Shown here piece by piece: positions 2-43,221 of a stretch of 64,000 nt of DNA (position 1 is its first letter; each line of letters opens with the position of its first letter). The notes under the pieces were generated by a model. It was not told the DNA's origin, did not search any database, and saw only the letters and a program-made list of their open reading frames with translations. Source of the DNA: Acidimicrobiia bacterium (GTDB lineage: Bacteria; Actinomycetota; Acidimicrobiia; IMCC26256; JAOSJL01); assembly GCA_041394025.1 (NCBI GenBank), contig JAWKJA010000002.1, forward strand, positions 1,454,541-1,518,540, read 5' to 3'. A program made the position numbers and the translations under genes.

Positions 2-487
2 CGCGACCGGCGGGCAGGCCTGGAGAACGTCGTCGCCGCCACCGGATTCGGGGCACTCGCAACAGAGCTCTCCGGTCCGGGTCGGCTCGCTTCAGAGCTC
101 GACACCGCACGGGAGCAGACGAGCGCCATCGAGCGCGAAACCTCGTCTGCCGTCGAGGGCGTGACCGTGTTCGGCGACTCCGGCAACCGGCTGGGCACCC
201 TCGTCTGCTTCGGTGTCGAGGGCGTGGAGGCGGAACCGATCCTGTTGGGGCTCGACCAGCGCGGTGTCGCCGCGCACTCGGGGTCGTCGTGCTCGAGCGA
301 GATCCTGGAGCCGTCGCCGGTCCTCGCGGCAATGGGCGTCGACGCCGACCACTCACTGCGTGTCAGCGTCGGCTGGAACACCTCAGACGCCGACGTCGCA
401 CTGTTTCTCGAGGCGTTTCCGATTGTGGTCGACGGTTTGCGGTCACTGCGCCCGCCCTCCCGGCGATCCGACGCCGCCGCCCCCTAG
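2..487 (+). CDS. cysteine desulfurase (NifS/IscS-type), C-terminal part; 5' end outside window
   Basis: Frame is open from the window edge to TAG at 485-487. Translation contains RAGLENV and the active-site Cys loop HSGSSCSSEILEPSPVL, typical of class V aminotransferase cysteine desulfurases. Confidence 0.8.
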   Translation, partial: RDRRAGLENVVAATGFGALATELSGPGRLASELDTAREQTSAIERETSSAVEGVTVFGDSGNRLGTLVCFGVEGVEAEPILLGLDQRGVAAHSGSSCSSEILEPSPVLAAMGVDADHSLRVSVGWNTSDADVALFLEAFPIVVDGLRSLRPPSRRSDAAAP

Positions 488-2884: not shown

Positions 2885-3601
2885 ATGGCTGACTGGAACG
2901 CACTCACAACCGAGCTGACGGAGGCGTTGAAGCTGTCGGCACCGCCGATCGCCATCACCTTCTCCGACACGCCACCCGACGGTGTGGAGCCCTTCGAGGA
3001 GCCGATGCCCGAAGCCCTCGACGGTCGCACCGGCCGGGTTCCCGCCGGCTGTGTGTTCTGGATGAAGGGTACGGAGCGCACCTTCTCCACGGTCGCCGAG
3101 GACCACGGCAACTGCTCGGTGGGGAGCCTCACGCACGGCTTCAAGACGCTCGACGAGGTCGCCGGCAACGGTGACGTGGCCACCCTCGTGGAGTCGGGCT
3201 GGGTCACGATGGATGTCGTACCGGAGATCCCGGTCGTGCAGGAGAAGCCGGGCACCGTCACCTACGGACCACTCGCCGAGACACCCGTGGACCCCGACGT
3301 GGTCATGCTGCGGGTGAACGGCAAGCAGCTCATGATCCTCTCCGATGCCATTCCCGGCCTGCGCATCGAGGGCAAGCCCCAGTGCCACATCGTGGCCATC
3401 GCCAAGGAGCAGGGTGAGCCCGCCGCCAGCGTGGGCTGCGCACTCAGTCGGGTCCGCACGGGAATGCCCGCCGCCGAGATGACCTGCACCATTCCGGGGC
3501 CGATGCTGGCCACGGTGGTGCAACAGGTCACCTCCATGGCCGACACCGACACGACGGTGGCGCGCTACGCCGCCCAGGACGCCGCGCGTTTCGAAGCCTG
3601 A
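2885..3601 (+). CDS. DUF169-like protein
   Basis: ATG at 2885, 9 nt after GAGGAA. The track start at 2753 overlaps the upstream gene and encodes an Arg/Pro-rich stretch, so it was rejected. The 238-aa product resembles DUF169/COG2043 proteins from memory. Confidence 0.55.
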   Translation: MADWNALTTELTEALKLSAPPIAITFSDTPPDGVEPFEEPMPEALDGRTGRVPAGCVFWMKGTERTFSTVAEDHGNCSVGSLTHGFKTLDEVAGNGDVATLVESGWVTMDVVPEIPVVQEKPGTVTYGPLAETPVDPDVVMLRVNGKQLMILSDAIPGLRIEGKPQCHIVAIAKEQGEPAASVGCALSRVRTGMPAAEMTCTIPGPMLATVVQQVTSMADTDTTVARYAAQDAARFEA

Positions 3602-3663: not shown

Positions 3664-4302
3664 TCACTTCTTCGCGGACTCGTAGAAGGGGTTCTCGCCC
3701 GAGGCGTGGTCGGTGACGTCGCGCACACCGATGATCTCGGGGATGGCCTCGGTGAGCGCCACCTCGATGCCCTGCGAGAGCGTCACGGAGGCCATGCCAC
3801 AGCCCTGGCACCCACCGCCCAGGCGGAGGTAGGCGATGCCTTCGTCGACGGCGACGAGCTCCGCAACACCGCCGTGTGAGGCGATGGCGGGGTTGATCTG
3901 CGTGTCGAGGACCTCGATCACCCTCTGGGGGAGCTCACCCGACAGGTCGGGTGGCGGGCCGTCGTAGCCGGCCGACGGCGGGGCCGGGCTGTTCGGGTTG
4001 TTCATGACCATGCCGTTGTTGGTGTAGTCGAGCGTGGCGCCGCGGAGCTTGTCGGCACTACCCGCCCCGATCACGACACTCAGGTCGTCGTTGTGCAGGA
4101 CCGTCTCGGCCTCGCCGGCCTCGGAGAGCGCACGGAAGTACATCTCGTACCGGTAGGTGGCACCGGCGATCCCGCTGACCTCGACCCAGAGCGCGAGGTT
4201 GTCGGCCTCGGGTTCGTCGGCGCGTGCCTCGAGGACCTTCTCGCGGGCCTCGTCGGTGAGCGTCAGCAGCGGCGTGGTCTCGGGTTTCTCGTCACTGGCC
4301 AT
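3664..4302 (-). CDS. NfuA-like Fe-S cluster assembly/carrier protein (A-type-like N-domain plus Nfu C-domain)
   Basis: 212-aa ORF. The C-terminal Nfu motif is LGGGCQGCGMASVTL. The N-terminal part resembles a HesB/IscA-like fold. Confidence 0.8.
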   Translation of the reverse strand: MASDEKPETTPLLTLTDEAREKVLEARADEPEADNLALWVEVSGIAGATYRYEMYFRALSEAGEAETVLHNDDLSVVIGAGSADKLRGATLDYTNNGMVMNNPNSPAPPSAGYDGPPPDLSGELPQRVIEVLDTQINPAIASHGGVAELVAVDEGIAYLRLGGGCQGCGMASVTLSQGIEVALTEAIPEIIGVRDVTDHASGENPFYESAKK

Positions 4303-4390
4303 GGTGTCCTCACGGGGGGGGAGCCGGCCGATCCGATCCGAAAAATGGATCCGGACTCATCGGATCAGCCCGACAACGGCGTCGACAGCC

Positions 4391-5674
4391 ATGATACGAC
4401 CTGTGCCCCGGGTGCTTCTCCTCCTGCCCACAACCACCTACAGAGCCCGCGACTTCCTGGAGGCGGCCGGTTCCCTGGGTGTCGAGGTGGTCGTCGGGTC
4501 CGACGGGCGCCAGGTCCTGGAGGACGTCACCGGGGCGAACACCCTGGTCCTCCCGCTCGGCGATCCCGACGAGAAGGGGGTGCGTGCGGCGGTGGACGCC
4601 ATCGTCGAGGCCAACACCCTCACGCCGTTCGACGCGATCGTCGGGGTCGACGACAGGGGCGTCGTCGCGGCAGCGGCGGCATCCGAGCGGTTGGGGCTCC
4701 CCGGCAATCACGTCGAAGCGGTACGCCGCACTCGTGACAAACGTGAGCAACGTCGCGCTTTCGGCGCTGCCGAGGTGCCACAGCCCGCGTACTCGGTCCT
4801 CGAGCCCGAGGATGTGCGCCGGCTGTGCGCCGGTGAGCACCTCGGCTCGGACGAGCTGGTCTCGTTCCCCGCGGTGATCAAGCCCCTCGGACTCTCCGGG
4901 AGCCAGGGCGTGATCCGTGTCGACCGGGAAGCCGATCTCCCCGCGGTCGCACAGCGGGTCGCACAGGTGGTCACGGGCGCGGAGGGGGGTGAAGCAACGG
5001 ACCCTCCGGAGCCGAGCCCATTGCTGCTCGAGGAGTTCGTGCCCGGACCCGAGGTGGCCGTGGAGGCCGTGGTCCGATCGGGGCAGGTTCGCGTTCTCGC
5101 CGTCTTCGACAAGCCCGACCCGCTCGACGGGCCCTACTTCGAGGAGACGATCTACGTGACCCCCAGTCGCCACTCCGAGGAGGACCTCCGCGACCTGGAA
5201 CGGGTGGTCGGTGCCGGGGTCGGCGCCCTAGGACTCACCGACGGGCCCGTGCACGCCGAGGCGCGGATCAGCGACCGGGGTGTGCGTCTCCTCGAGGTCG
5301 CCGCGCGGTCGATCGGCGGGCTGTGTGCACGTGCGCTGCGCTTCGGGGTGGGTGTCAGCCTCGAGGAGGTGATCCTCCGGCACGCCCTCCAGGACAGGCA
5401 GCCCGTCCTCGTCCCCGAGGGGGCGGCCTCCGGCGTGATGATGCTGCCGATCCCCCGCGCCGGAACCCTGCGTGATGTCCGCGGCGTCGAAGAGGCCCGT
5501 GCCGTGCCGGGTGTCGTGGGCCTCGAGACCACGATCCCGAGAGGCAGCACCGTCGAACCGCTCCCGGAGGGCGGCCGCTACCTCGGATTCGTGTTCGCCC
5601 GCGGAGCGAGCCCCGACGAGGTCGAGTCCACGCTGCGCACCGCCCACGGGAAGCTCACCATCGACATCACCTGA
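4391..5674 (+). CDS. ATP-grasp domain protein (amino-acid-ligase-like)
   Basis: ATG at 4391 (MIRPVPRVLLLLP). The longer track ORF from 4157 overlaps nfuA antisense. Pre-ATP-grasp Rossmann-like N-terminus, then FPAVIKPLGLSGSQGV and LLLEEFVPGPEVAVE blocks typical of ATP-grasp_4-type ligases. Confidence 0.75.
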   Translation: MIRPVPRVLLLLPTTTYRARDFLEAAGSLGVEVVVGSDGRQVLEDVTGANTLVLPLGDPDEKGVRAAVDAIVEANTLTPFDAIVGVDDRGVVAAAAASERLGLPGNHVEAVRRTRDKREQRRAFGAAEVPQPAYSVLEPEDVRRLCAGEHLGSDELVSFPAVIKPLGLSGSQGVIRVDREADLPAVAQRVAQVVTGAEGGEATDPPEPSPLLLEEFVPGPEVAVEAVVRSGQVRVLAVFDKPDPLDGPYFEETIYVTPSRHSEEDLRDLERVVGAGVGALGLTDGPVHAEARISDRGVRLLEVAARSIGGLCARALRFGVGVSLEEVILRHALQDRQPVLVPEGAASGVMMLPIPRAGTLRDVRGVEEARAVPGVVGLETTIPRGSTVEPLPEGGRYLGFVFARGASPDEVESTLRTAHGKLTIDIT

Positions 5675-5728
5675 CACGACGGGTGGCCGGCACCGCCCGA
5701 CGCCGACGGGGGTCGTACGCTGGCCGCG

Positions 5729-7150
5729 ATGCGCGTCCTGGTCCTGTCCACCTACGAGCTCGGTCACCAGCCCGTGCACGCGGCCGCGGCCGCGGCCGTG
5801 CTGCGGGCAGCGGGTCACGATGCCCGGGTGCGCGATCTCGCCGTCGAGGCGTGGGACGACGGCGACGTCGCCTGGGCCGACGCCCTGGCGTGCTCGGTGC
5901 CGATGCACACGGCGCGCCGTCTCGCCTCCGAGGCCACCGGCCGTGCACGGGCGGTGCGCCCCGGGCTACCGGTGTGCTGGTTCGGTCTCTACGCCGTCGC
6001 TGCCACACCGGCACGCGACGGGTCGGTCCACCTGATCGCCGGTGAGTACGGGGACGCACTCCGTGAGTGGGCCGACGACCCGGCAGGCCAGAAGGCACGG
6101 GGGGCCGTCGTCGACATCGGTCGTGCCGGACCGACGGGCACGCCGGTGCCCGACCGGACCGGCCTGCCCGGCCTCGACCGGTACGTGCGCTTCGTCGACC
6201 ATGACGGGGAGCGAACGGTCGCGGCGGTCGAGGCCAGCCACGGGTGCGCCCACCGGTGCCGGCACTGCCCTGTGCCGGTGGTCTACGACGGCCGCACACG
6301 CGCCGTCGCCACCGACACGGTGCTGGCCGACATCGAAGAGCAGGTCGCCGCTGGTGCCCGACACGTGACCTTCGGCGACGCCGACTTCCTCAACCGGCCG
6401 CGGCACTCGCTGGAGATCGTGCGCGAGATGAGACGGCACTTCGAGGGCGCTGCGGGCGGACCGCTGACGTTCGACTGCACCGTCAAGGTGGAGCACATCC
6501 TGCGCCACGCCGACGTGTGGGACGAGATGGTGGCGGCGGGGTGCCGGTTCGTGGTCTCGGCCTTCGAGTCGGTGGACGACCGCACACTCGCCCTCCTCGA
6601 CAAGGGTCACACGGCGGCGCAGGCGGCCGAGGCCGTCGGGCTGCTCCGGGCCCACGGCATCGAGATCCGGCCGTCTTTCCTCCCCTTCCTGCCGTGGACT
6701 CAGATCGAGCACCTCGTCGACCTGCTCGACTTCGTCGCCGACCACGATCTCGTCCCCAACGTGGATCCCGTGCAGTACACGATCCGGCTGCTCCTCCCGC
6801 CCGGATCGCTCCTGCTCGATCTCCCCGAGGTCCGGAAACGCGTCGGGGCGTTCGACGAGGCGGCGCACGCGTGGAGGTGGCGGCCCGACGATCCCGCCCT
6901 CGACGACCTCCAGGCGGAACTCGCGAACATCGTGGAGTCGGGCGCCGCCGAGGCTACCGGCGCCACACCGGGAGCAACGGCCGGCTACCAGCGCGTCCGT
7001 GACGCCGTGTTCGCCGTAGCCGGGCGCCCCGATCCGCGGCCGGCCGTCGATGCGGCAGCCGTCCCGCCGACGAGGCCGCGGCTCACGGAGTCGTGGTACT
7101 GCTGTTCGGAGCCGACCGACGCGCAGTTGAGCGTGCTCGAGGTGCCCTGA
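5729..7150 (+). CDS. radical SAM enzyme with B12-binding-like N-domain and C-terminal CC-S-E-P tail (CUAEP/CCAEP-tail family-like)
   Basis: CxxxCxxC motif is SHGCAHRCRHCPV. The N-terminal flavodoxin/B12-like domain starts MRVLVLSTYELGH. The C-terminal tail is ESWYCCSEPTDAQ, with TGC TGT at 7099-7104. Confidence 0.8.
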   Translation: MRVLVLSTYELGHQPVHAAAAAAVLRAAGHDARVRDLAVEAWDDGDVAWADALACSVPMHTARRLASEATGRARAVRPGLPVCWFGLYAVAATPARDGSVHLIAGEYGDALREWADDPAGQKARGAVVDIGRAGPTGTPVPDRTGLPGLDRYVRFVDHDGERTVAAVEASHGCAHRCRHCPVPVVYDGRTRAVATDTVLADIEEQVAAGARHVTFGDADFLNRPRHSLEIVREMRRHFEGAAGGPLTFDCTVKVEHILRHADVWDEMVAAGCRFVVSAFESVDDRTLALLDKGHTAAQAAEAVGLLRAHGIEIRPSFLPFLPWTQIEHLVDLLDFVADHDLVPNVDPVQYTIRLLLPPGSLLLDLPEVRKRVGAFDEAAHAWRWRPDDPALDDLQAELANIVESGAAEATGATPGATAGYQRVRDAVFAVAGRPDPRPAVDAAAVPPTRPRLTESWYCCSEPTDAQLSVLEVP

Positions 7151-7158
7151 GCCCCCGG

Positions 7159-11208: not shown

Positions 11209-12112
11209 GCCCGCGACGTCCGTCGACGGCCACTCCGGCAGCCACCGAGACGGTCACTCCGACGACGAGCTCACCGAGGAGCTGGCGGGCCTCGACGCGC
11301 TGGAAGTGGCCGTCCCACCGTCCCCCGGGCGGGCGACGCGCGCCTGGGCCGCCGCGTGGCCGAAACTGGCCGCTGCGCTCGTGGCGCTCGTCGCCTGGCA
11401 GCTGATCGTCTGGTCGGGGTGGCGCTCCACGGACGTCCTGCCCGGGCCCGGCCCGGTGTTCGAGACGCTCTGGGACGACCTGTGGAGCGGAGATCTCATC
11501 CTTGCCACGGCGCTCACGCTTCGTCGGGCCGTCCTCGGATTCGCACTCGGGATCGCCATCGGAACGCCGATCGGGATCGCCGTGGCGCGGGTGCGCGTCG
11601 TGCGGACGGCGGTCGGATCGGTCGTGACGAGTCTCCAGACCATGCCGTCGACCGCGTGGTTCCCGTTCGCGATCCTGCTCTTCTCGCAGTCGGAGACCGC
11701 CATCATGTTCGTGGTCGTGCTCGGCGCGGCTCCGGCCGTCGCCAACGGGCTCGTGGCCGGGATCGACCAGATCCCACCCAACCTCCTGCGTGCGGGACGC
11801 GTGCTCGGCGCGCGCGGGTGGACGGCTCTGCGTTACGTGGTGCTCCCGGCGGCCTACCCCCAGTACGTGGCGGGCCTCAAGCAGGGCTGGGCGTTCGCGT
11901 GGCGGAGCCTCATCGCCGGGGAGTTGATCGTGCAGGTGGCCGGCAGCGAGTCGATCGGTGTCCGGCTCCAGGACGCGCAGCGCAGCGACGACGCCACGGC
12001 GCTGCTCGCCACGATGGTCGTGATCCTCGTGATCGGGATCGCCGTCGACAGCCTCGGGTTCGGGACGCTCGAGCGACGGATCCGCCGCCGCTACGGGCTT
12101 GCGACCTCTTGA
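11195..12112 (+). CDS. ABC transporter permease (SsuC/TauC-like)
   Basis: Overlaps the ATPase gene by 14 nt. Six hydrophobic segments and a BPD_transp_1-like EAA loop region (LLRAGRVLGARGWTALRYVVLP). Its last 105 nt are duplicated at 16087-16191. Confidence 0.85.
   Translation: MCPIEPATSVDGHSGSHRDGHSDDELTEELAGLDALEVAVPPSPGRATRAWAAAWPKLAAALVALVAWQLIVWSGWRSTDVLPGPGPVFETLWDDLWSGDLILATALTLRRAVLGFALGIAIGTPIGIAVARVRVVRTAVGSVVTSLQTMPSTAWFPFAILLFSQSETAIMFVVVLGAAPAVANGLVAGIDQIPPNLLRAGRVLGARGWTALRYVVLPAAYPQYVAGLKQGWAFAWRSLIAGELIVQVAGSESIGVRLQDAQRSDDATALLATMVVILVIGIAVDSLGFGTLERRIRRRYGLATS
11992..12096. repeat. 105-bp direct repeat, left copy (attL-like; permease 3' end)
   Basis: Identical base for base to 16087-16191. 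The flanks diverge immediately on both sides. Confidence 0.85.
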
Positions 12113-12151
12113 GCCCTAGCCCAGCGGGCTCGCCGTGAATGACGTCGGCCC

Positions 12152-12397
12152 TCAGTCGCGCCGGCGGCGTTCTTCGTAGCGCCGCCGCCAGCGATGACCG
12201 ACACCACCCGGGCGGACAAGCCACCAGGTGAACAAGCCAGCACCGATCCCGAACCCAACGCACACGAGCGGGTAGTTGAAGTCGAACTGGAGCATGGAAT
12301 AGACGAAGCCGAACGCTCCGACGATCGAACCCGCTAGCCGCGGGTGTGCTGAAGCCCAGCGATACTCCTTCTCGTCGTACCTCTCGCGCTTCACCAC
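12152..12397 (-). CDS. candidate 2-TM immunity-like small protein (in frame with the RHS ORF; GTG at 12395-12397)
   Basis: VVKRERYDEKEYRWASAHPRLAGSIVGAFGFVYSMLQFDFNYPLVCVGFGIGAGLFTWWLVRPGG...RRRYEERRRRD: two hydrophobic helices and an Arg-rich tail. The stretch just upstream (about 12398-12560) has poor GC3 and Cys/Arg-rich translation, so it may be non-coding spacer. Confidence 0.3.
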   Translation of the reverse strand: MVKRERYDEKEYRWASAHPRLAGSIVGAFGFVYSMLQFDFNYPLVCVGFGIGAGLFTWWLVRPGGVGHRWRRRYEERRRRD

Positions 12398-13696
12398 CGC
12401 TACTTGCCCGACCCTGGGCACCGAACATCGACAAACGCGCCGACGGCGGTGACACCCAGATCCGAAATCGCTGCTGCTCGCGAGGCTCCTGCCGCACCCA
12501 AGGGCCCACCCACAGCTCCTCCAAAAAACGGGCAGCGCTGCCGCGCGTGCTACCCGCTGCCGCTTGCATGGCTTCTCGTCGAGTGCTTCAGAGGTCACGT
12601 TCAGGGCACTCCCCCCAGCTACAAGCGCTAGCCCGGCAGGCGGATTGGCGAACGTGACACCTGTGCCCAGCAAAACTCCACCAGTATCGACGGCCTTTGT
12701 GATCCCGACCCTATTTTCGCCGACCCAGTCGACGGCGTCGTCGAGGCAGTTCCCGAGGTCCCGCCACCCACATCCTCTGAGACCCATCGGGTCGACCAGA
12801 ACGCCGGGGCGGTTTCGGACGTAGGCGTATGACGACACCGACGGGCTGTCCGCAGAAGGTTGCAGTGGGTCGGTGGCGAGGAACCGGCCTGTCGATGGGT
12901 CGTACTGGCGGGCCCGAAGGTTGTAGAGGCCGGTCTCTTCATCAAGGTATTCGCCCGTGAAGCGCATCGGATTCGCCGGTGCTGACGGCTCGAGTTGTTC
13001 CGAACGACGCGCTGCACCGAATGGCTCATAGTCGTAGGAACATCGTGGCGTGCCGTCGGCGGAGGTGACGGCCGCAATGTTGCCGAGGTCGTTGCGGTGG
13101 AAGAACGACTCCCCGCCGGCTGCGCGCATCGAGATCGTGCTTTCGCCGAACACGTAGTCGCGCAACGGCACTCCGCCACCGTCGGACTCGCCAACCAGCT
13201 GTGGTACCGGGGCGTTCCGATCCCACAACGAGTAGGTCGTTCCGGTTTCGGTCGTGGCCGCGAGCCGGTTCCCGTCGGCGTCGTAGCTGTAGGCCACGTC
13301 GGTCGTGTGGGAACCCCCAACGAGTGAGGCGGACCCGGTGACGCCCGTGACGGTCTCCCCGATCTTGGTGACCTGGAGATCCCCATCGGTGATCGTTCCG
13401 TAGGCCTCGTAGTCTACGGCGCCTGACAGGGACAGGCTGACCTCGTCGTTGCCGGCACCGTTGTCGGTGACTGACCAGTCGAGGTTGACGAGTCCGAAGA
13501 AGCTGTAGGTGCTCGTCGCCCCATTCGCGCCGTCGGGTGTGACCTGTCCGAACCAGATCGGCACGGTGACGTCGACGCCAGCCTGTTGGTCGGTGACCCG
13601 AACGCTGCCGAAGTAGACCGGGAACAACCACAACGAGCGCACGTTGAACTCCACGTCGACCACTGAGCCCGTCGCCGGTTTCGACGCGCCCGTCAT
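12152..13696 (-). CDS. RHS repeat-associated core domain protein fragment with C-terminal polymorphic-toxin-like tail
   Basis: Contains YD-type repeats (VAYSYDADGNRLAAT, CSYDYEPFG). The RHS core end reads PMRFTGEYLDEETGLYNLRARQYDPSTGRFLATDP...VLVDPMGL, with DPxGL at 12779-12793. The 208 codons after it look heterogeneous. Only about 300 aa precede the core, so this is probably an orphan or truncated module. Confidence 0.75.
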   Translation of the reverse strand: MTGASKPATGSVVDVEFNVRSLWLFPVYFGSVRVTDQQAGVDVTVPIWFGQVTPDGANGATSTYSFFGLVNLDWSVTDNGAGNDEVSLSLSGAVDYEAYGTITDGDLQVTKIGETVTGVTGSASLVGGSHTTDVAYSYDADGNRLAATTETGTTYSLWDRNAPVPQLVGESDGGGVPLRDYVFGESTISMRAAGGESFFHRNDLGNIAAVTSADGTPRCSYDYEPFGAARRSEQLEPSAPANPMRFTGEYLDEETGLYNLRARQYDPSTGRFLATDPLQPSADSPSVSSYAYVRNRPGVLVDPMGLRGCGWRDLGNCLDDAVDWVGENRVGITKAVDTGGVLLGTGVTFANPPAGLALVAGGSALNVTSEALDEKPCKRQRVARAAALPVFWRSCGWALGCGRSLASSSDFGSGCHRRRRVCRCSVPRVGQVAVVKRERYDEKEYRWASAHPRLAGSIVGAFGFVYSMLQFDFNYPLVCVGFGIGAGLFTWWLVRPGGVGHRWRRRYEERRRRD

Positions 13697-13756
13697 TCGG
13701 TTGGCCAGATCATAGGTATAGGCCGTAGCGCCGGCGGCCGCAGCGCGCGACCAGAC

Positions 13757-13999
13757 CTAACGCCTGCGCCGCCGGTCGCCGAGCAGCAGGGCGGCGATAC
13801 CTGTACCGCACCAAACCGCCACGGCCACCGCAATCTTCCACCGGGCATCTTCTGACGGCCTGGCTTGGCCGAGCACCCAAGCCACCACCAGTGCACCAAG
13901 AGCTCCAGTCAAGAACAAGAAGACGGTACGTACCTTCCTCTCGAGCACGGGGCAATCGAGAGAATGGAAGAAACCCGGACCGCAGGTCTTGCAGCCCAT
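13757..13999 (-). CDS. small 2-TM protein with N-terminal CxxC...C motif (immunity-like)
   Basis: ATG at 13997-13999: MGCKTCGPGFFHSLDCPVLERK, then two TM helices and a tail GDRRRRR. Same architecture as the ORF at 12152-12397. Lower-GC codons. Lies directly upstream of the RHS fragment. Confidence 0.4.
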   Translation of the reverse strand: MGCKTCGPGFFHSLDCPVLERKVRTVFLFLTGALGALVVAWVLGQARPSEDARWKIAVAVAVWCGTGIAALLLGDRRRRR

Positions 14000-14063
14000 G
14001 ACTACTTGCCGCAACTCGGTTCTGGAGGTCCCCCGCTCTGACGGACAGGTTGGGTGTGGGTGA

Positions 14064-14937
14064 TCATGGGGCGTTGGTGGTTTCGTAGTCGAGGGGGCTG
14101 TGTCCGGCGTTGTAGCTGTGCCGGCGGCGGGGGTTGTACCAGGTTACGATCCATTCAGAAGATCGCGTGGGCGAGCTGGTCGCGGGTGTCCCAGTGGTGC
14201 TGGTCCAACAGCTCGCGTTGCAGGCTCGAGAAGAAGACCTCGGCGACGGAGTTGTCATACGCGTCGCCGATGGATCCCATCGATCCGAGCAGGCCGGCGT
14301 TGCGGAGCCGGTTGCCGAACAGCCATGACGTGTAGATCGACCCGTGATCCGAGTGTGCAACGGTTTGGCCTGCTGGAGGTCGCCGCCGCCAGGTAGCCAT
14401 CTGGAGTGCATCCGCGGCGAGCTCTGTGCGGATGTGATCCGCGATGGACCAGCCAACGACCCGGCGGGACCAGGCGTCGACCACAGCGGCGAGGTAGACG
14501 GTGCCTTCATCGGTGCGGTGCTCGGTGACGTCCATCACCCACAGGCGGTCGGGACCTTCGGGGTCGAAGCGTCGCTGCACGAGGTCGGGGTTCGGGTCCG
14601 TGCCGTCGCGGCGGGTGCAACCGTTCTTGCCTCGCCGGGACGGGTAGTGGATCCCCACCGCGCCGCAGTCACGCATCCAGCGTTCCACCTGGGTCTTGGA
14701 GCACCGCCGGCGCATCCCCAAGCGGAGCTCCTGAAGAACCCGAGGTGACCCATACGAGTGCCGAGACATCGTCCAAATGTCGAACACCGTGTTGGCCATC
14801 CAGGCGTCGTCGAGTTCGGCGTCAGTGACCGGTTCGGATCGACGCTGGAAAAAGCCCGCTCTCGACACCCCCATCACACGGCAGCACACCGCGACGGGCA
14901 GATCCGAGCAACGCTCGGCGATGAAGGTGTAGATCAT
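14064..14937 (-). pseudogene. IS3 family transposase OrfB (rve/DDE integrase core) with a 3'-terminal frameshift
   Basis: DDE core blocks LWVMDVTE and HSDHGSIYTS. This frame stops at 14155 after ...QLAHAIF. The conserved tail EWIVTWYNPRRRHSYNAGHSPLDYETTNAP continues in another frame down to 14064, which implies one extra nucleotide near 14155-14160. Confidence 0.8.
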
Positions 14938-15224
14938 TTTGGGAGGACGTTCTCCTGGGCGAAGTACGCCGCCGCAGGCTTGAGGATCTCGTTCTCCATC
15001 TTCGCCACGCGCAACTCACGGCGCAGCTTCACCAGCTCCTCGCGCTCAGCAGTGCTGAGACCACCAGAGCGCCGTCCCTCGTCGAGGTCAGCTTGGTGCA
15101 TCCAGTTCCGCAAGCAGCTGTCGGAGATCCCAAGATCGGTTGCGATCTCCGCCACGGGCTTCTCGCGCAACCGGGCCAACTCCACGGCTCGCTGACGAAA
15201 CTCCGGTGGGTGGGGTGCAGGCAT
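14934..15224 (-). CDS. IS3 family transposase OrfA (HTH)
   Basis: MPAPHPPEFRQRAVELARLREKPVAEIATDLGISDSCLRNWMHQ plus a leucine-zipper-like tail. Ends in CCAAAATGA, overlapping the orfB start. Confidence 0.85.
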   Translation of the reverse strand: MPAPHPPEFRQRAVELARLREKPVAEIATDLGISDSCLRNWMHQADLDEGRRSGGLSTAEREELVKLRRELRVAKMENEILKPAAAYFAQENVLPK

Positions 15225-15356
15225 CTGGACTCCTTCCCGAGACGACCCACAGTCGCCTCAGCATCGGTGTCCGTCAACCCGGGGGACCTCCACCTTCCTG
15301 ACCGGGGTTCGAGGTGACAGATCAGTGGTTCACCCTGGGTTTGATGGAGACTCGGT

Positions 15357-15482
15357 TCATTGGGTTCCAACCGTGTTGTGGTCGGTCTGTTGACCAGCGT
15401 AGAACGCTGCTTCGAGTTCTGCTGGTGGCATGTCGTGGCAGTGGCCGTGGAGACGCTGGTGGTTGATGGGATGAAGGAGCGG
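15357..15482 (-). pseudogene. remnant of a second rve-type transposase C-terminus
   Basis: Minus-strand translation ...PLLHPINHQRLHGHCHDMPPAELEAAFYAGQQTDHNTVGTQ* resembles the YNxxRxH...PAEFE tail of integrase-core transposases. No upstream catalytic domain is present. Confidence 0.35.
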
Positions 15483-15556
15483 GTCCTGCGCTCCTCGTGA
15501 GCCCGGCGTGCATGCTCGGGGGCTCACACCATGTTCACGAGGATGGGAGGGCCCTC

Positions 15557-16086
15557 ATGGCAGGGTACGTTCCGATTGATCTCCATCGCCGCCGTTCGGT
15601 GGTGATGCACATCGACTCCGCCGGTGAGATGCTGGGTTGGAAGCGGGTCGCCAACGAACCGGACGCGCTGGTGGCTGAGGTGCTCTAGCACGGCGAGTCT
15701 CCCGAGGTGGCGATTGAAGCCACCTACGGGTGGTACTGGGCGGTCGACGCGCTCTCGGCAGCCGGGTGCGAGGTGAAGCTGGTCAACGTTGCTGCGGTGC
15801 GCGGGTTCGAGAATCGCCGGGTGAAAAATGACGTGCGGGACTGCGAGCTGTTGGGCCAGTTGATGCGCACGAACACGCTGCCCGAGGCGTGGATGGCCCG
15901 GAGCGAGGTACGCGAGCAGCGGGAGCTGGTCCGCTATCGGGCCAAGCTGGTGGCTGTGCGTACCGGGTCCAAAGCCCAGGTCCACTCGGCGTTCGCCAAG
16001 CTGGGCATCCAGGCTTGCTGGTCGGACATGTTCGGTCCCTCGGGCCGCCAAGAACAGGAACGTGAGCCGTGCCTCGAACGTGAAGG
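15557..16086 (+). pseudogene. IS110 family transposase, N-terminal DEDD domain only (in-frame TAG at 15686-15688; 3' truncated at the repeat)
   Basis: MAGYVPIDLHRRRSVVMHIDSAG...AEVL*HGESPEVAIEATYGWYWAVDALSAAGCEVKLVNVAAVRGFENRRVKNDVRDCELLGQLMRT...LVRYRAKLVAVRT matches the IS110 N-domain pattern. The C-terminal domain is absent. The ORF runs directly into the 105-bp permease repeat. Confidence 0.7.
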
Positions 16087-16191
16087 CGCCACGGCGCTGC
16101 TCGCCACGATGGTCGTGATCCTCGTGATCGGGATCGCCGTCGACAGCCTCGGGTTCGGGACGCTCGAGCGACGGATCCGCCGCCGCTACGG
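16087..16191. repeat. 105-bp direct repeat, right copy (attR-like)
   Basis: Identical to 11992-12096. Followed by ggtctcgccaccccgtag (GLATP*), which is synonymous with but differs from the tail after the left copy. Confidence 0.85.
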
Positions 16192-16225
16192 TCTCGCCAC
16201 CCCGTAGCGCGACGAAACCGCGCCG

Positions 16226-42147: not shown

Positions 42148-43221
42148 GTGGCGAGGCGGGCGGTGATCGTGTCGTACCGGCTCGGCGGTACCGACGGCGT
42201 GTCGGTCGAGGCCACCAAGTGGTCGTGGGCCCTCACGGAGCTCGGGTTCACGGTGCGCCGCGTGGCCGGCGAGATCCTCGACGACGGCAAACACTCCGAT
42301 GTCGTTCTACCGGGCCTCGCCATCGACGCCACCGTCGGGCCCGACCCGGTCGAGGTCGGCGACGCTCTCGGAGACGACGACCTGGTGGTGGTCGAGAACC
42401 TCTGCTCCCTCCCGCTGCACGAGGCCGCCTCCCGTGTCGTGGGTGACGTGCTGCAACGTCGCGGAGGGCGCGTCCTCCTGCACCACCACGACCTCCCGTG
42501 GGAGCGACGGCGCTTCGAGCACGTGCGCGGCATCCCGCCCGACATCGACGGAGCGCTCCACGTCACGATCAACGAACGCGCCTGGTCGAGGCTGACCGTG
42601 CACGGGATCCGAGCCGTCAGGATTCCCAACCTGTTCGACCCACGTGAGCCGGGAGGCGACCGCGAGGGTACGCGGTCGCTCGCGGGAATCGAGCCCGACG
42701 ATGTACTCCTCCTCCAGCCCACGCGCGCCATCGAGCGCAAGAACCTCCCGGCCGGTCTCCGGTTCGGCGCTGTCCTCGACACGCTCACCGACCGCACGGT
42801 GCGCTACTGGATCACAGGGCCGCCCGAGGAGGGCTACGGCAAGACATGGGCGGCCCTGCTCAACGCCTCGCCGCTGGAATGCTTGACGGGACGGGCGAGA
42901 TCCGTCGCCGACGCCTATGCAGCGGCGGACGCCGTCGTCTTCCCCTCCACCGTCGAGGGCTTCGGGAACCCGATCGTCGAAGCCGCTCTGGCCCGCCGTC
43001 CCCTGGTCGTCGGATCGGTCGGCCTGCACCGGGAGCACTACGACGCGGGCCTGCAGATGTTCACAGTGGGGAATCCCGAGGGCGTCGCGGCATGGCTCGC
43101 CGACCCCGAACCTTTCTTCCTGGAGCGGAACCGCGAGGCGGCGATCGCCGCCTACAGCCTCACCACGCTCCCCGATCGGATCACCGACGCCTTCCGCGGG
43201 GCAGGATGGACGGAGTGGTGA
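42148..43221 (+). CDS. glycosyltransferase (GT-B fold, GT4-like)
   Basis: The C-terminal half has VFPSTVEGFGNPIVEAAL, the E-x7-E-type motif of retaining GT4 enzymes. Confidence 0.75.
   Translation: MARRAVIVSYRLGGTDGVSVEATKWSWALTELGFTVRRVAGEILDDGKHSDVVLPGLAIDATVGPDPVEVGDALGDDDLVVVENLCSLPLHEAASRVVGDVLQRRGGRVLLHHHDLPWERRRFEHVRGIPPDIDGALHVTINERAWSRLTVHGIRAVRIPNLFDPREPGGDREGTRSLAGIEPDDVLLLQPTRAIERKNLPAGLRFGAVLDTLTDRTVRYWITGPPEEGYGKTWAALLNASPLECLTGRARSVADAYAAADAVVFPSTVEGFGNPIVEAALARRPLVVGSVGLHREHYDAGLQMFTVGNPEGVAAWLADPEPFFLERNREAAIAAYSLTTLPDRITDAFRGAGWTEW

Follow-up and report, generated by a model that had tools for sequence, protein, structure and literature searches.

Introduction

The radical S-adenosylmethionine (SAM) enzyme ArsL, which acts in arsinothricin biosynthesis, cleaves SAM to methylthioadenosine (MTA) and a 3-amino-3-carboxypropyl (ACP) radical or Fe-C organometallic species, holds As(III) on three C-terminal cysteines and makes a C-As bond; it is active in vitro without cobalamin. 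Its sister family, the CUAEP/CCAEP-tail radical SAM enzymes, is large, often encodes selenoproteins and is catalogued but uncharacterised. The single paper mentioning this family in the literature searched calls it uncharacterised, and also notes that CU motifs are otherwise met in proteins handling heavy-metal atoms (Haft preprint). A member of the family was examined here in a 64,000-nt stretch of an Acidimicrobiia genome (assembly GCA_041394025.1, contig JAWKJA010000002.1, positions 1,454,541 to 1,518,540; hereafter the window), where its gene (5729-7150, plus strand) stands beside genes for an ATP-grasp enzyme of the L-amino-acid ligase (LAL) type (4391-5674, plus strand) and an NfuA-type Fe-S cluster carrier (3664-4302, minus strand). 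The three genes form a conserved module that is common among Acidimicrobiia of environmental origin and also occurs in other phyla.

No enzyme of the Pfam family Radical_SAM (PF04055) other than ArsL is so far known to generate an ACP radical or to form a bond between carbon and a metalloid. The window enzyme is similar to ArsL in its full-length homology (ArsL is 27-34% identical to the clade), its N-terminal Rossmann-type domain, its CxxxCxxC core, its Cys-rich tail with an aligned CC, and the LAL-type ATP-grasp that usually stands alongside. Compared with arsinothricin biosynthesis, the nearest characterised system, the module differs in its tail, its partners and its genomic context: the arsenic gene context of ArsL (ArsM, ArsQ or major facilitator superfamily (MFS), ArsR, aquaporin and ArsN) was absent from the ORFs scanned to ~49 kb, and the partners in the window are the NfuA-type carrier and a DUF169 protein.

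Other described systems resemble parts of the module. The ligases BL00235 and BacD/YwfE (bacilysin) share the three-domain LAL architecture of the window ligase, and BL00235 prefers Met or Leu as its N-terminal substrate; the window ligase is distant from both in sequence, and its genetic linkage is with a radical SAM enzyme and an Fe-S carrier, not with a pathway of the bacilysin type. Vicinal Cys or Cys-Sec (selenocysteine) arms at the C-terminus are known in MerA, HgcB and thioredoxin reductase. There, too, a flexible CC/CU arm carries soft metal or redox equivalents, but the folds are unrelated to that of the radical SAM enzyme and the resemblance is one of principle only.

Family assignment and predicted fold of the radical SAM enzyme

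The radical SAM gene encodes a protein of 473 aa (ATG at 5729, stop at 7148-7150), with a start codon backed by homologues beginning MRVL.VSTYELGHQP. Its top family match was NCBIfam NF040546, the CUAEP/CCAEP-tail family (491.8 bits, E = 1.8e-147), with residues 3-467 aligned to model positions 1-466 of 468 and thus over the full length. The second match was NF040542, the ArsL family (224.5 bits, E = 2.6e-66, residues 3-405), a score well short of the 450 bits required for ArsL. All further radical SAM families scored less than 46 bits, the next best being an NCBIfam model at 45.8. Judged by these profile matches, the window enzyme is a Cys-type, slightly divergent member of the catalogued CUAEP/CCAEP family, sister to ArsL. 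A preliminary description of the stretch, drawn up without database searches, had named the right family but had overlooked ArsL as its informative relative.

The nearest relatives belonged to Acidimicrobiia, the closest (P0002) being 70% identical; NCBI names it only "radical SAM protein", which is explained by the score of the window enzyme, just under the NF040546 cutoff. Relatives that do bear the CUAEP/CCAEP-tail name were 53-57% identical to the window enzyme. That cutoff was passed by members from an alphaproteobacterial single-cell genome, Egibacteraceae and Thermomicrobium roseum (554.7 bits for L002, 563.3 for L095 and 764.6 for T. roseum). Together with ArsL, the family comprised 726 clusters at 50% identity (E ≤ 1e-30), and hundreds of matches came from soil, peat and water metagenomes. 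No functional study of the family was found in the literature searched, in agreement with the earlier remark that no established substrate or pathway is known for it.

The catalytic core was matched by Pfam Radical_SAM at 2e-16. The protein contains ...EASHGCAHRCRHCPVP..., in which C173, C177 and C180 form the GCAHRCRHC cluster motif; this CxxxCxxC [4Fe-4S] motif, read from the sequence, lies at 6245-6268 (plus strand), and its three cysteines were invariant in both homologue alignments (A1 and A2). The N-terminal Rossmann-type, cobalamin-domain-like domain covers approximately residues 1-130 (5729-6118, plus strand), and G12, Q14 and P15 of its STYELGHQP loop were invariant across the CUAEP and ArsL families. 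An AlphaFold model built from 36 homologues reached a predicted local distance difference test score (pLDDT) of 91 and a predicted template modelling score (pTM) of 0.91. Its best Foldseek matches were AprD4, OxsB, MgmA and TsrM. Each of these radical SAM enzymes begins with a Rossmann domain of the cobalamin type; AprD4 (PDB 6fd2), which is cobalamin-free, ranked first (E = 3.7e-17, TM-score 0.64). The label "B12-domain-like" given to the enzyme earlier therefore holds at the level of the fold, through these class-B-like matches, but not by Pfam, where PF02310 (B12-binding) matched residues 4-112 weakly, at 17.6 bits against a cutoff of 32.1. The library scans (NCBIfam, Pfam) returned no SPASM domain and no recognition domain of ribosomally synthesized and post-translationally modified peptide (RiPP) pathways, and a search of the PDB by sequence returned no structure of ArsL or DUF169.

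A vicinal cysteine tail that is Cys-Sec in many relatives

The enzyme ends in ...TESWYCCSEPTDAQLSVLEVP, with the vicinal pair C458-C459 in SWYCCSEP, where Tyr and Ser replace the Phe and Ala of the family motif. The motif C458-C459-S-E-P is encoded at 7100-7114 (plus strand), with TGC at 7100-7102 and TGT at 7103-7105; the CCSEP ending and its two Cys codons had been read correctly in the preliminary description, which set the codons one base off, at 7099-7104. Among the 120 best homologues, the tail followed the conserved motif RPRLTEPWFC[C/U][A/S]EPT..Q. It was CCAEP in 64 and CCSEP, the form of the window, in nine, and the remaining 47 proteins ended at ...W[FY]C. In the DNA of the W[FY]C-ending loci, the next codon was TGA, followed in frame by a conserved AEPTEGQF, so that 47/120 homologues (~39%) were of the Sec type, with TGA at position 459.

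A hairpin resembling a selenocysteine insertion sequence (SECIS) element, GAGGGCC-AGUUC-GGCCCUC, was located ~15 nt past the in-frame UGA, with compensatory changes at three pairs (loci L008, L010, L016, L018, L021, L022, L026, L034, L047, L059, L061, L064, L076, L081, L088 and L090), and is likely a SECIS element. Given the TGA, the conserved in-frame AEPT..Q and a hairpin with compensatory pairs, these relatives are genuine Cys-Sec selenoproteins, which bears out the earlier statement that the second Cys of the tail can be Sec. The Cys-type gene in the window has a weaker hairpin at the equivalent site (~7116-7140), which may be a relic or a mere consequence of the conserved peptide. Both C458 and C459 were invariant in alignment A1. 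The CC of the CCSEP tail aligned with the CC of the RCCLKC tail of ArsL, and ~50 extra residues precede the tail in this clade.

A conserved module with a ligase and an Fe-S carrier

The ATP-grasp gene (ATG at 4391, stop at 5672-5674) encodes 427 aa, and its start codon is backed by an identical 427-aa protein (P0121) from an Acidimicrobiia metagenome-assembled genome. It precedes the radical SAM gene on the same plus strand with a gap of 54 nt (5675-5728), exactly as the pair had first been described. Pfam domains ATPgrasp_N (44.9 bits), ATP-grasp_4 (95.6 bits) and LAL_C2 (69.3 bits) were all above their cutoffs, and the closest solved relatives were the LAL BL00235 (PDB 3vot; E = 2.2e-32) and BacD (E = 1.9e-10). 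The protein scored below every NCBIfam equivalog cutoff. On its domain architecture it is an enzyme of the LAL type, with a predicted dipeptide-forming activity.

The NfuA-type gene, divergent from the ATP-grasp gene, encodes 212 aa with a Pfam NifU match (2.8e-21, residues 129-193) and an Fe-S_biosyn match just under the Pfam cutoff (4e-05, residues 13-104). Its A-type N-domain is devoid of Cys, and the sole Cys pair is the CQGC of the Nfu domain. With 103.3 bits against the NfuA equivalog TIGR03341 (cutoff 269 bits), the product is, by its profile scores, NfuA-like and not an NfuA equivalog.

The association of these genes was examined in 80 loci recovered by a profile-guided scan of metagenome contigs, 50 of which were informative, their sequence reaching 1.4 kb or more beyond the 5' end of the radical SAM gene. 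Neighbours were called by tblastn of the window proteins and by gene calls filtered on GC content at third codon positions (GC3); a clustering of stop-to-stop open reading frames (ORFs) from 86 loci was dropped because spurious antisense ORFs swamp it at 70% GC. The ligase was present in 38/50 informative loci, and in 36/50 it was directly upstream of the radical SAM gene on the same strand. Overall, at least four different gene orders were seen for the pair, across two phyla. Among the 33 loci with generous flanks, ten had the order NfuA< AG> rSAM> (AG, ATP-grasp; rSAM, radical SAM; arrowheads, direction), eight had that of the window itself, NifS> DUF169> NfuA< AG> rSAM> Acn< (Acn, aconitase), and two had DUF169> AG> rSAM> NfuA>. 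Further arrangements included NfuA< rSAM> without a ligase, and rSAM> DUF169>.

Outside this set, the alphaproteobacterial single-cell genome (L002, one of two loci returned by a single-protein scan of genome contigs; 38% identity) had the order Nfu> rSAM> AG>, with Rrf2 and SufBCDS genes coming next, and the trio was also found in Egibacteraceae in different surroundings. The reverse look-up, starting from ATP-grasp orthologues on long contigs, gave NifU< AG> rSAM> in 3/3 cases, and the neighbours beyond the trio were unrelated and included transposases. One locus (L099, 8001-10553, GCA_004366215.1) encodes a natural 850-aa fusion of ATP-grasp and radical SAM enzyme with the tail ...AWFCCAAPTS, adjoining a divergent NifU gene. 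The preliminary description had proposed co-occurrence of the pair across genomes as a check of the pairing, and the 38/50 loci, the three reverse look-ups and the fusion all speak for it.

That description had missed two further partners. The NfuA-type carrier adjoined the pair in most loci and in several orientations, and was at least as constant as the ligase, and DUF169 was a frequent fourth neighbour in several gene orders. The NifS-DUF169-NfuA block was syntenic in ten loci (L003, L004, L006, L009, L037, L041, L055, L056, L060 and L073). Adjacency that survives changes of gene order, occurrence beyond a single phylum and the gene fusion, taken together, point to a functional module rather than to inherited synteny. 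The window locus is thus a conserved three-gene module of NfuA-type carrier, LAL ATP-grasp and CCSEP-tail radical SAM enzyme. It is an ordinary representative of this module, and its interest lies in the hypothesis that can be framed for the family. Neither the module of LAL and NfuA-type carrier, nor the fusion, nor the ligase in ArsL clusters reported below was described in the literature searched.

LAL-type ligases in ArsL gene clusters

Radical SAM genes of the ArsL type (RCCLKC) were found on 36 plasmids, of which 35 carried a LAL-type ATP-grasp gene within ~5 kb (Bacillus 20, Priestia 7, Pantoea 6, Alicyclobacillus 1 and Klebsiella 1). As many of the Bacillus plasmids are near-identical, the 35 plasmids count as five lineages. 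The arsQ-arsL-arsM cluster of Pseudomonas amygdali was the sole one of the 36 without a LAL ATP-grasp. In Pantoea, the operon comprised the ArsL-type radical SAM enzyme, a small protein, the ATP-grasp, an MFS protein, ArsM, a GTPase and an aquaporin.

The ligases of these clusters had the LAL architecture, their best PDB and NCBIfam matches were identical to those of the window ligase, and the identity matrices of ATP-grasp and radical SAM proteins mirrored each other across both families. The pairing of a radical SAM enzyme with a LAL is a property of the whole ArsL/CUAEP clade. No paper on the ligase in ArsL clusters was found in the literature searched. ArsL yields a free amino acid, so the most natural substrate for the ligase is whatever the radical SAM enzyme makes. 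The co-occurrence on 35 of the 36 plasmids suggests undescribed arsinothricin-derived peptides.

Small CMD-like or hypothetical proteins encoded beside the ligase in four ArsL loci (L092, L093, L094 and L098) also have a vicinal-Cys tail at the C-terminus, which reads ...SSCCS or ...SSCCK.

Proposed pathway

The explanation that we favour, tentatively and with somewhat less than even confidence, is by analogy with ArsL: the radical SAM enzyme would alkylate a thiophilic atom held on its tail with ACP, and the resulting amino acid would then be ligated. The [4Fe-4S] cluster bound by the CxxxCxxC motif would cleave the C(gamma)-S bond of SAM to give MTA and an ACP radical or Fe-C species, and the flexible C-terminal Cys-Cys tail (Cys-Sec in many relatives) would present the thiophilic atom. 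Joining of ACP to this atom would yield a 2-amino-4-(heteroatom)butanoate, an amino acid similar to methionine or glutamate, whose carboxylate the ATP-grasp ligase would activate and condense with a second amino acid to form a dipeptide. The NfuA-type protein would install or repair the cluster of the radical SAM enzyme. The hypothesis has four parts: the identity of the SAM bond that breaks, of the element on the tail, of the amino acid formed and of the dipeptide built from it.

Ligation followed by radical chemistry had been put forward in the preliminary description. The reverse order is likely, with the radical SAM enzyme probably acting before the ligase, since the substrates of LAL enzymes are free amino acids; and instead of generic radical chemistry, the relationship with ArsL points to ACP transfer to a tail-bound atom. 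As for the atom, the lack of ars, mer or sel genes in the scanned part of the window together with neighbours in Fe-S and sulfur trafficking (NifS, NfuA, Suf) argues against arsenic as the acceptor, and for S, Se or another soft element. The proposed reaction would be similar to that of Dph2, which also takes ACP from SAM by means of a [4Fe-4S] cluster; unlike the window enzyme, Dph2 is not a PF04055 protein, lacks the CxxxCxxC motif and acts on a histidine residue of a protein. Carbon-metal chemistry is weakly hinted at by a 695-aa CCAEP-tail radical SAM protein with a C-terminal MerB-like (alkylmercury lyase) domain (P0254, on an 8.3-kb Joint Genome Institute metagenome contig that also carries a second, stand-alone MerB gene); no MerB-like gene was present in any other fetched locus. 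In its broadest form, the proposal amounts to a second natural pathway of the ArsL type, in which a radical SAM enzyme bonds ACP to a non-arsenic soft element (Se, S, Hg, Sb or Te) on a CC/CU arm and the product passes into a dipeptide, a prospect that we regard as doubtful.

Several observations weigh against ArsL-like alkylation and ligation. The window enzyme misses the curated NF040546 cutoff (500 bits) by 8 bits. Its tail has two Cys and lies ~50 residues further out, compared with the three of the RCCLKC tail of ArsL, and an identity to ArsL of 27-34% leaves room for a different chemistry. The ORFs scanned to ~49 kb around the locus included no ars, mer or sel genes and neither a methyltransferase nor an exporter, and the module is set amid housekeeping genes (aconitase, NifS, cytochrome c maturation). 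The ligase was absent from 12/50 informative loci, about a quarter, and part of the synteny within Acidimicrobiia is inherited. A subclade of 11 loci (L061, L062, L068, L069, L070, L072, L077, L078, L079, L082 and L085) had neither ligase nor NfuA, in the arrangement PDH-E1< alpha/beta-hydrolase< rSAM> DrrA-type ABC ATPase> ABC-2 permease> (PDH, pyruvate dehydrogenase; ABC, ATP-binding cassette), which hints at export of a small-molecule product. In T. roseum, the radical SAM gene lies between an aminotransferase and an MFS transporter and likewise lacks both partners. The ATP-grasps of the ArsL clusters were just 22-26% identical to the window ligase, so the parallel may be one of convergent recruitment. 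Finally, both fusions are single sequences: the ATP-grasp fusion comes from one genome and could still be a sequencing error, and P0254 is a singleton cluster.

Alternative explanations

Canonical radical SAM chemistry is the main alternative, although we consider it unlikely. A 5'-deoxyadenosyl (5'-dA) radical would modify a small molecule, possibly a dipeptide made by the ligase, through rearrangement, dehydration or methylation, and the CC/CU tail would serve as a redox or hydrogen-atom-donor pair, like the GCUG arm of thioredoxin reductase. Nearly all PF04055 enzymes are reported to make 5'-dA, and the best structural matches of the window enzyme, AprD4 (a diol dehydratase without cobalamin), OxsB, MgmA and TsrM, have the same two-domain layout. 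The two tail Cys, rather than the three of ArsL, and the lack of a metalloid gene context also fit, and the order of steps agrees with that first proposed. AprD4, with its canonical 5'-dA chemistry and aminoglycoside substrate, has no Cys-rich tail, however, and is 17% identical to the window enzyme. The sole strong family relative is ArsL (224.5 bits, against less than 46 for class-B-type families), the CC of the tail aligns with the substrate-binding CC of ArsL, and LAL ligases are found beside ArsL too, an enzyme that makes a free amino acid.

A sulfur or selenium version, rather improbable in our view, is a sub-case of the alkylation and ligation pathway. A cysteine desulfurase would load persulfide or selenide on the tail, ACP would be transferred to it, and the vicinal Cys or Sec would resolve the resulting mixed disulfide and so release (seleno)homocysteine or a related thiol, which the ligase would build into a low-molecular-weight thiol or dipeptide. 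It is favoured by the neighbourhood of a NifS-type desulfurase, DUF169 and NfuA in Acidimicrobiia and of Nfu, Rrf2 and SufBCDS in the alphaproteobacterial genome; a vicinal resolving Cys or Sec would, we infer, fit persulfide chemistry, and the setting, housekeeping-like and non-mobile, hints at a core metabolite. Against it, homocysteine made from SAM brings no metabolic gain, and NfuA alone could explain the adjacency of NifS and Suf.

That the adjacency reflects inherited synteny only, with the two enzymes in unrelated pathways, is very unlikely and largely excluded. Most loci come from Acidimicrobiia, where microsynteny with housekeeping genes is kept, and 12/50 loci are without the ligase. 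Yet the order has been reshuffled with adjacency retained, an alphaproteobacterium and Egibacteraceae carry the trio amid other neighbours, a natural fusion exists, and the same pairing is found in five lineages of the ArsL sister family.

Maturation of a ribosomal precursor peptide by both enzymes, the least probable reading, is rejected: ATP-grasp and radical SAM pairs do occur in some RiPP clusters, but the non-coding gaps around the pair are just 88, 54 and 8 nt and similarly short in relatives, leaving no space for a precursor gene (none had been seen in the preliminary description either), the LAL architecture with LAL_C2 is of a type acting on free amino acids, and no SPASM or RiPP-recognition domain was matched.

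Significance

The linkage to a ligase and an Fe-S carrier, together with the LAL-type ligase of ArsL clusters, turns the orphan CUAEP/CCAEP family into a testable pathway hypothesis. If ArsL-like alkylation followed by ligation is true, noncanonical radical SAM chemistry would extend to new elements, and organo-element metabolites would be yet to be found in abundant uncultured Actinomycetota. From the LAL ligase in most ArsL clusters, one would likewise expect arsinothricin-containing peptides that have yet to be described. If the ArsL-like hypothesis fails, the family would consist of canonical radical SAM enzymes with an unusual redox tail, a more modest result.

Other features of the window

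The window has a GC content of ~70%. Between the divergent NfuA-type and ATP-grasp genes lies an 88-nt intergenic region (4303-4390), presumed to hold the promoters of both, and an 8-nt non-coding stretch (7151-7158) directly follows the radical SAM gene. A scan of the whole window against Rfam at gathering thresholds gave 0 matches and thus no riboswitch or leader, including in 4303-4390. Upstream of the module, the DUF169 gene (2885-3601, plus strand) encodes 238 aa (Pfam PF02596, 4.2e-23). The literature offers weak hints on DUF169, which adjoins HgcAB-like genes in one case and appears in one list of co-occurrence with selenium. The window edge cuts a class-V aminotransferase gene of the NifS/cysteine-desulfurase type, of which the 3' part is at 2-487 (plus strand; Pfam Aminotran_5, 1e-10). 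A 758-aa multi-pass membrane protein with no Pfam match is encoded between the NifS-type gene and DUF169 (538-2814); in the close relatives L003, L004 and L006 these two genes are adjacent, without this protein between them.

Downstream, an insertion of ~4.1 kb (11987-16201) has at either end a direct repeat of 120 nt (11987-12106 and 16082-16201; 96% identity), a duplication of the 3' end of an ABC permease gene, and the GC content drops there to 0.65. It contains a 514-aa ORF (12152-13696, minus strand) with an RHS-like ...DPMGL... core end and no Pfam match, as well as an IS110-family transposase fragment (15689-16207). In L003 and L006, the ABC transporter is followed by a peptidyl-prolyl isomerase gene, without the insertion. 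Two tRNA genes were called by ARAGORN. A 93-nt tRNA-Gly(ACC) at 11731-11823 falls within the ABC permease ORF and is probably spurious. The other, a tRNA-Ser(CGA) at 42640-42725 (minus strand), overlaps the 5' part of a glycosyltransferase stop-to-stop ORF, so the true start of the glycosyltransferase is probably downstream of 42725.

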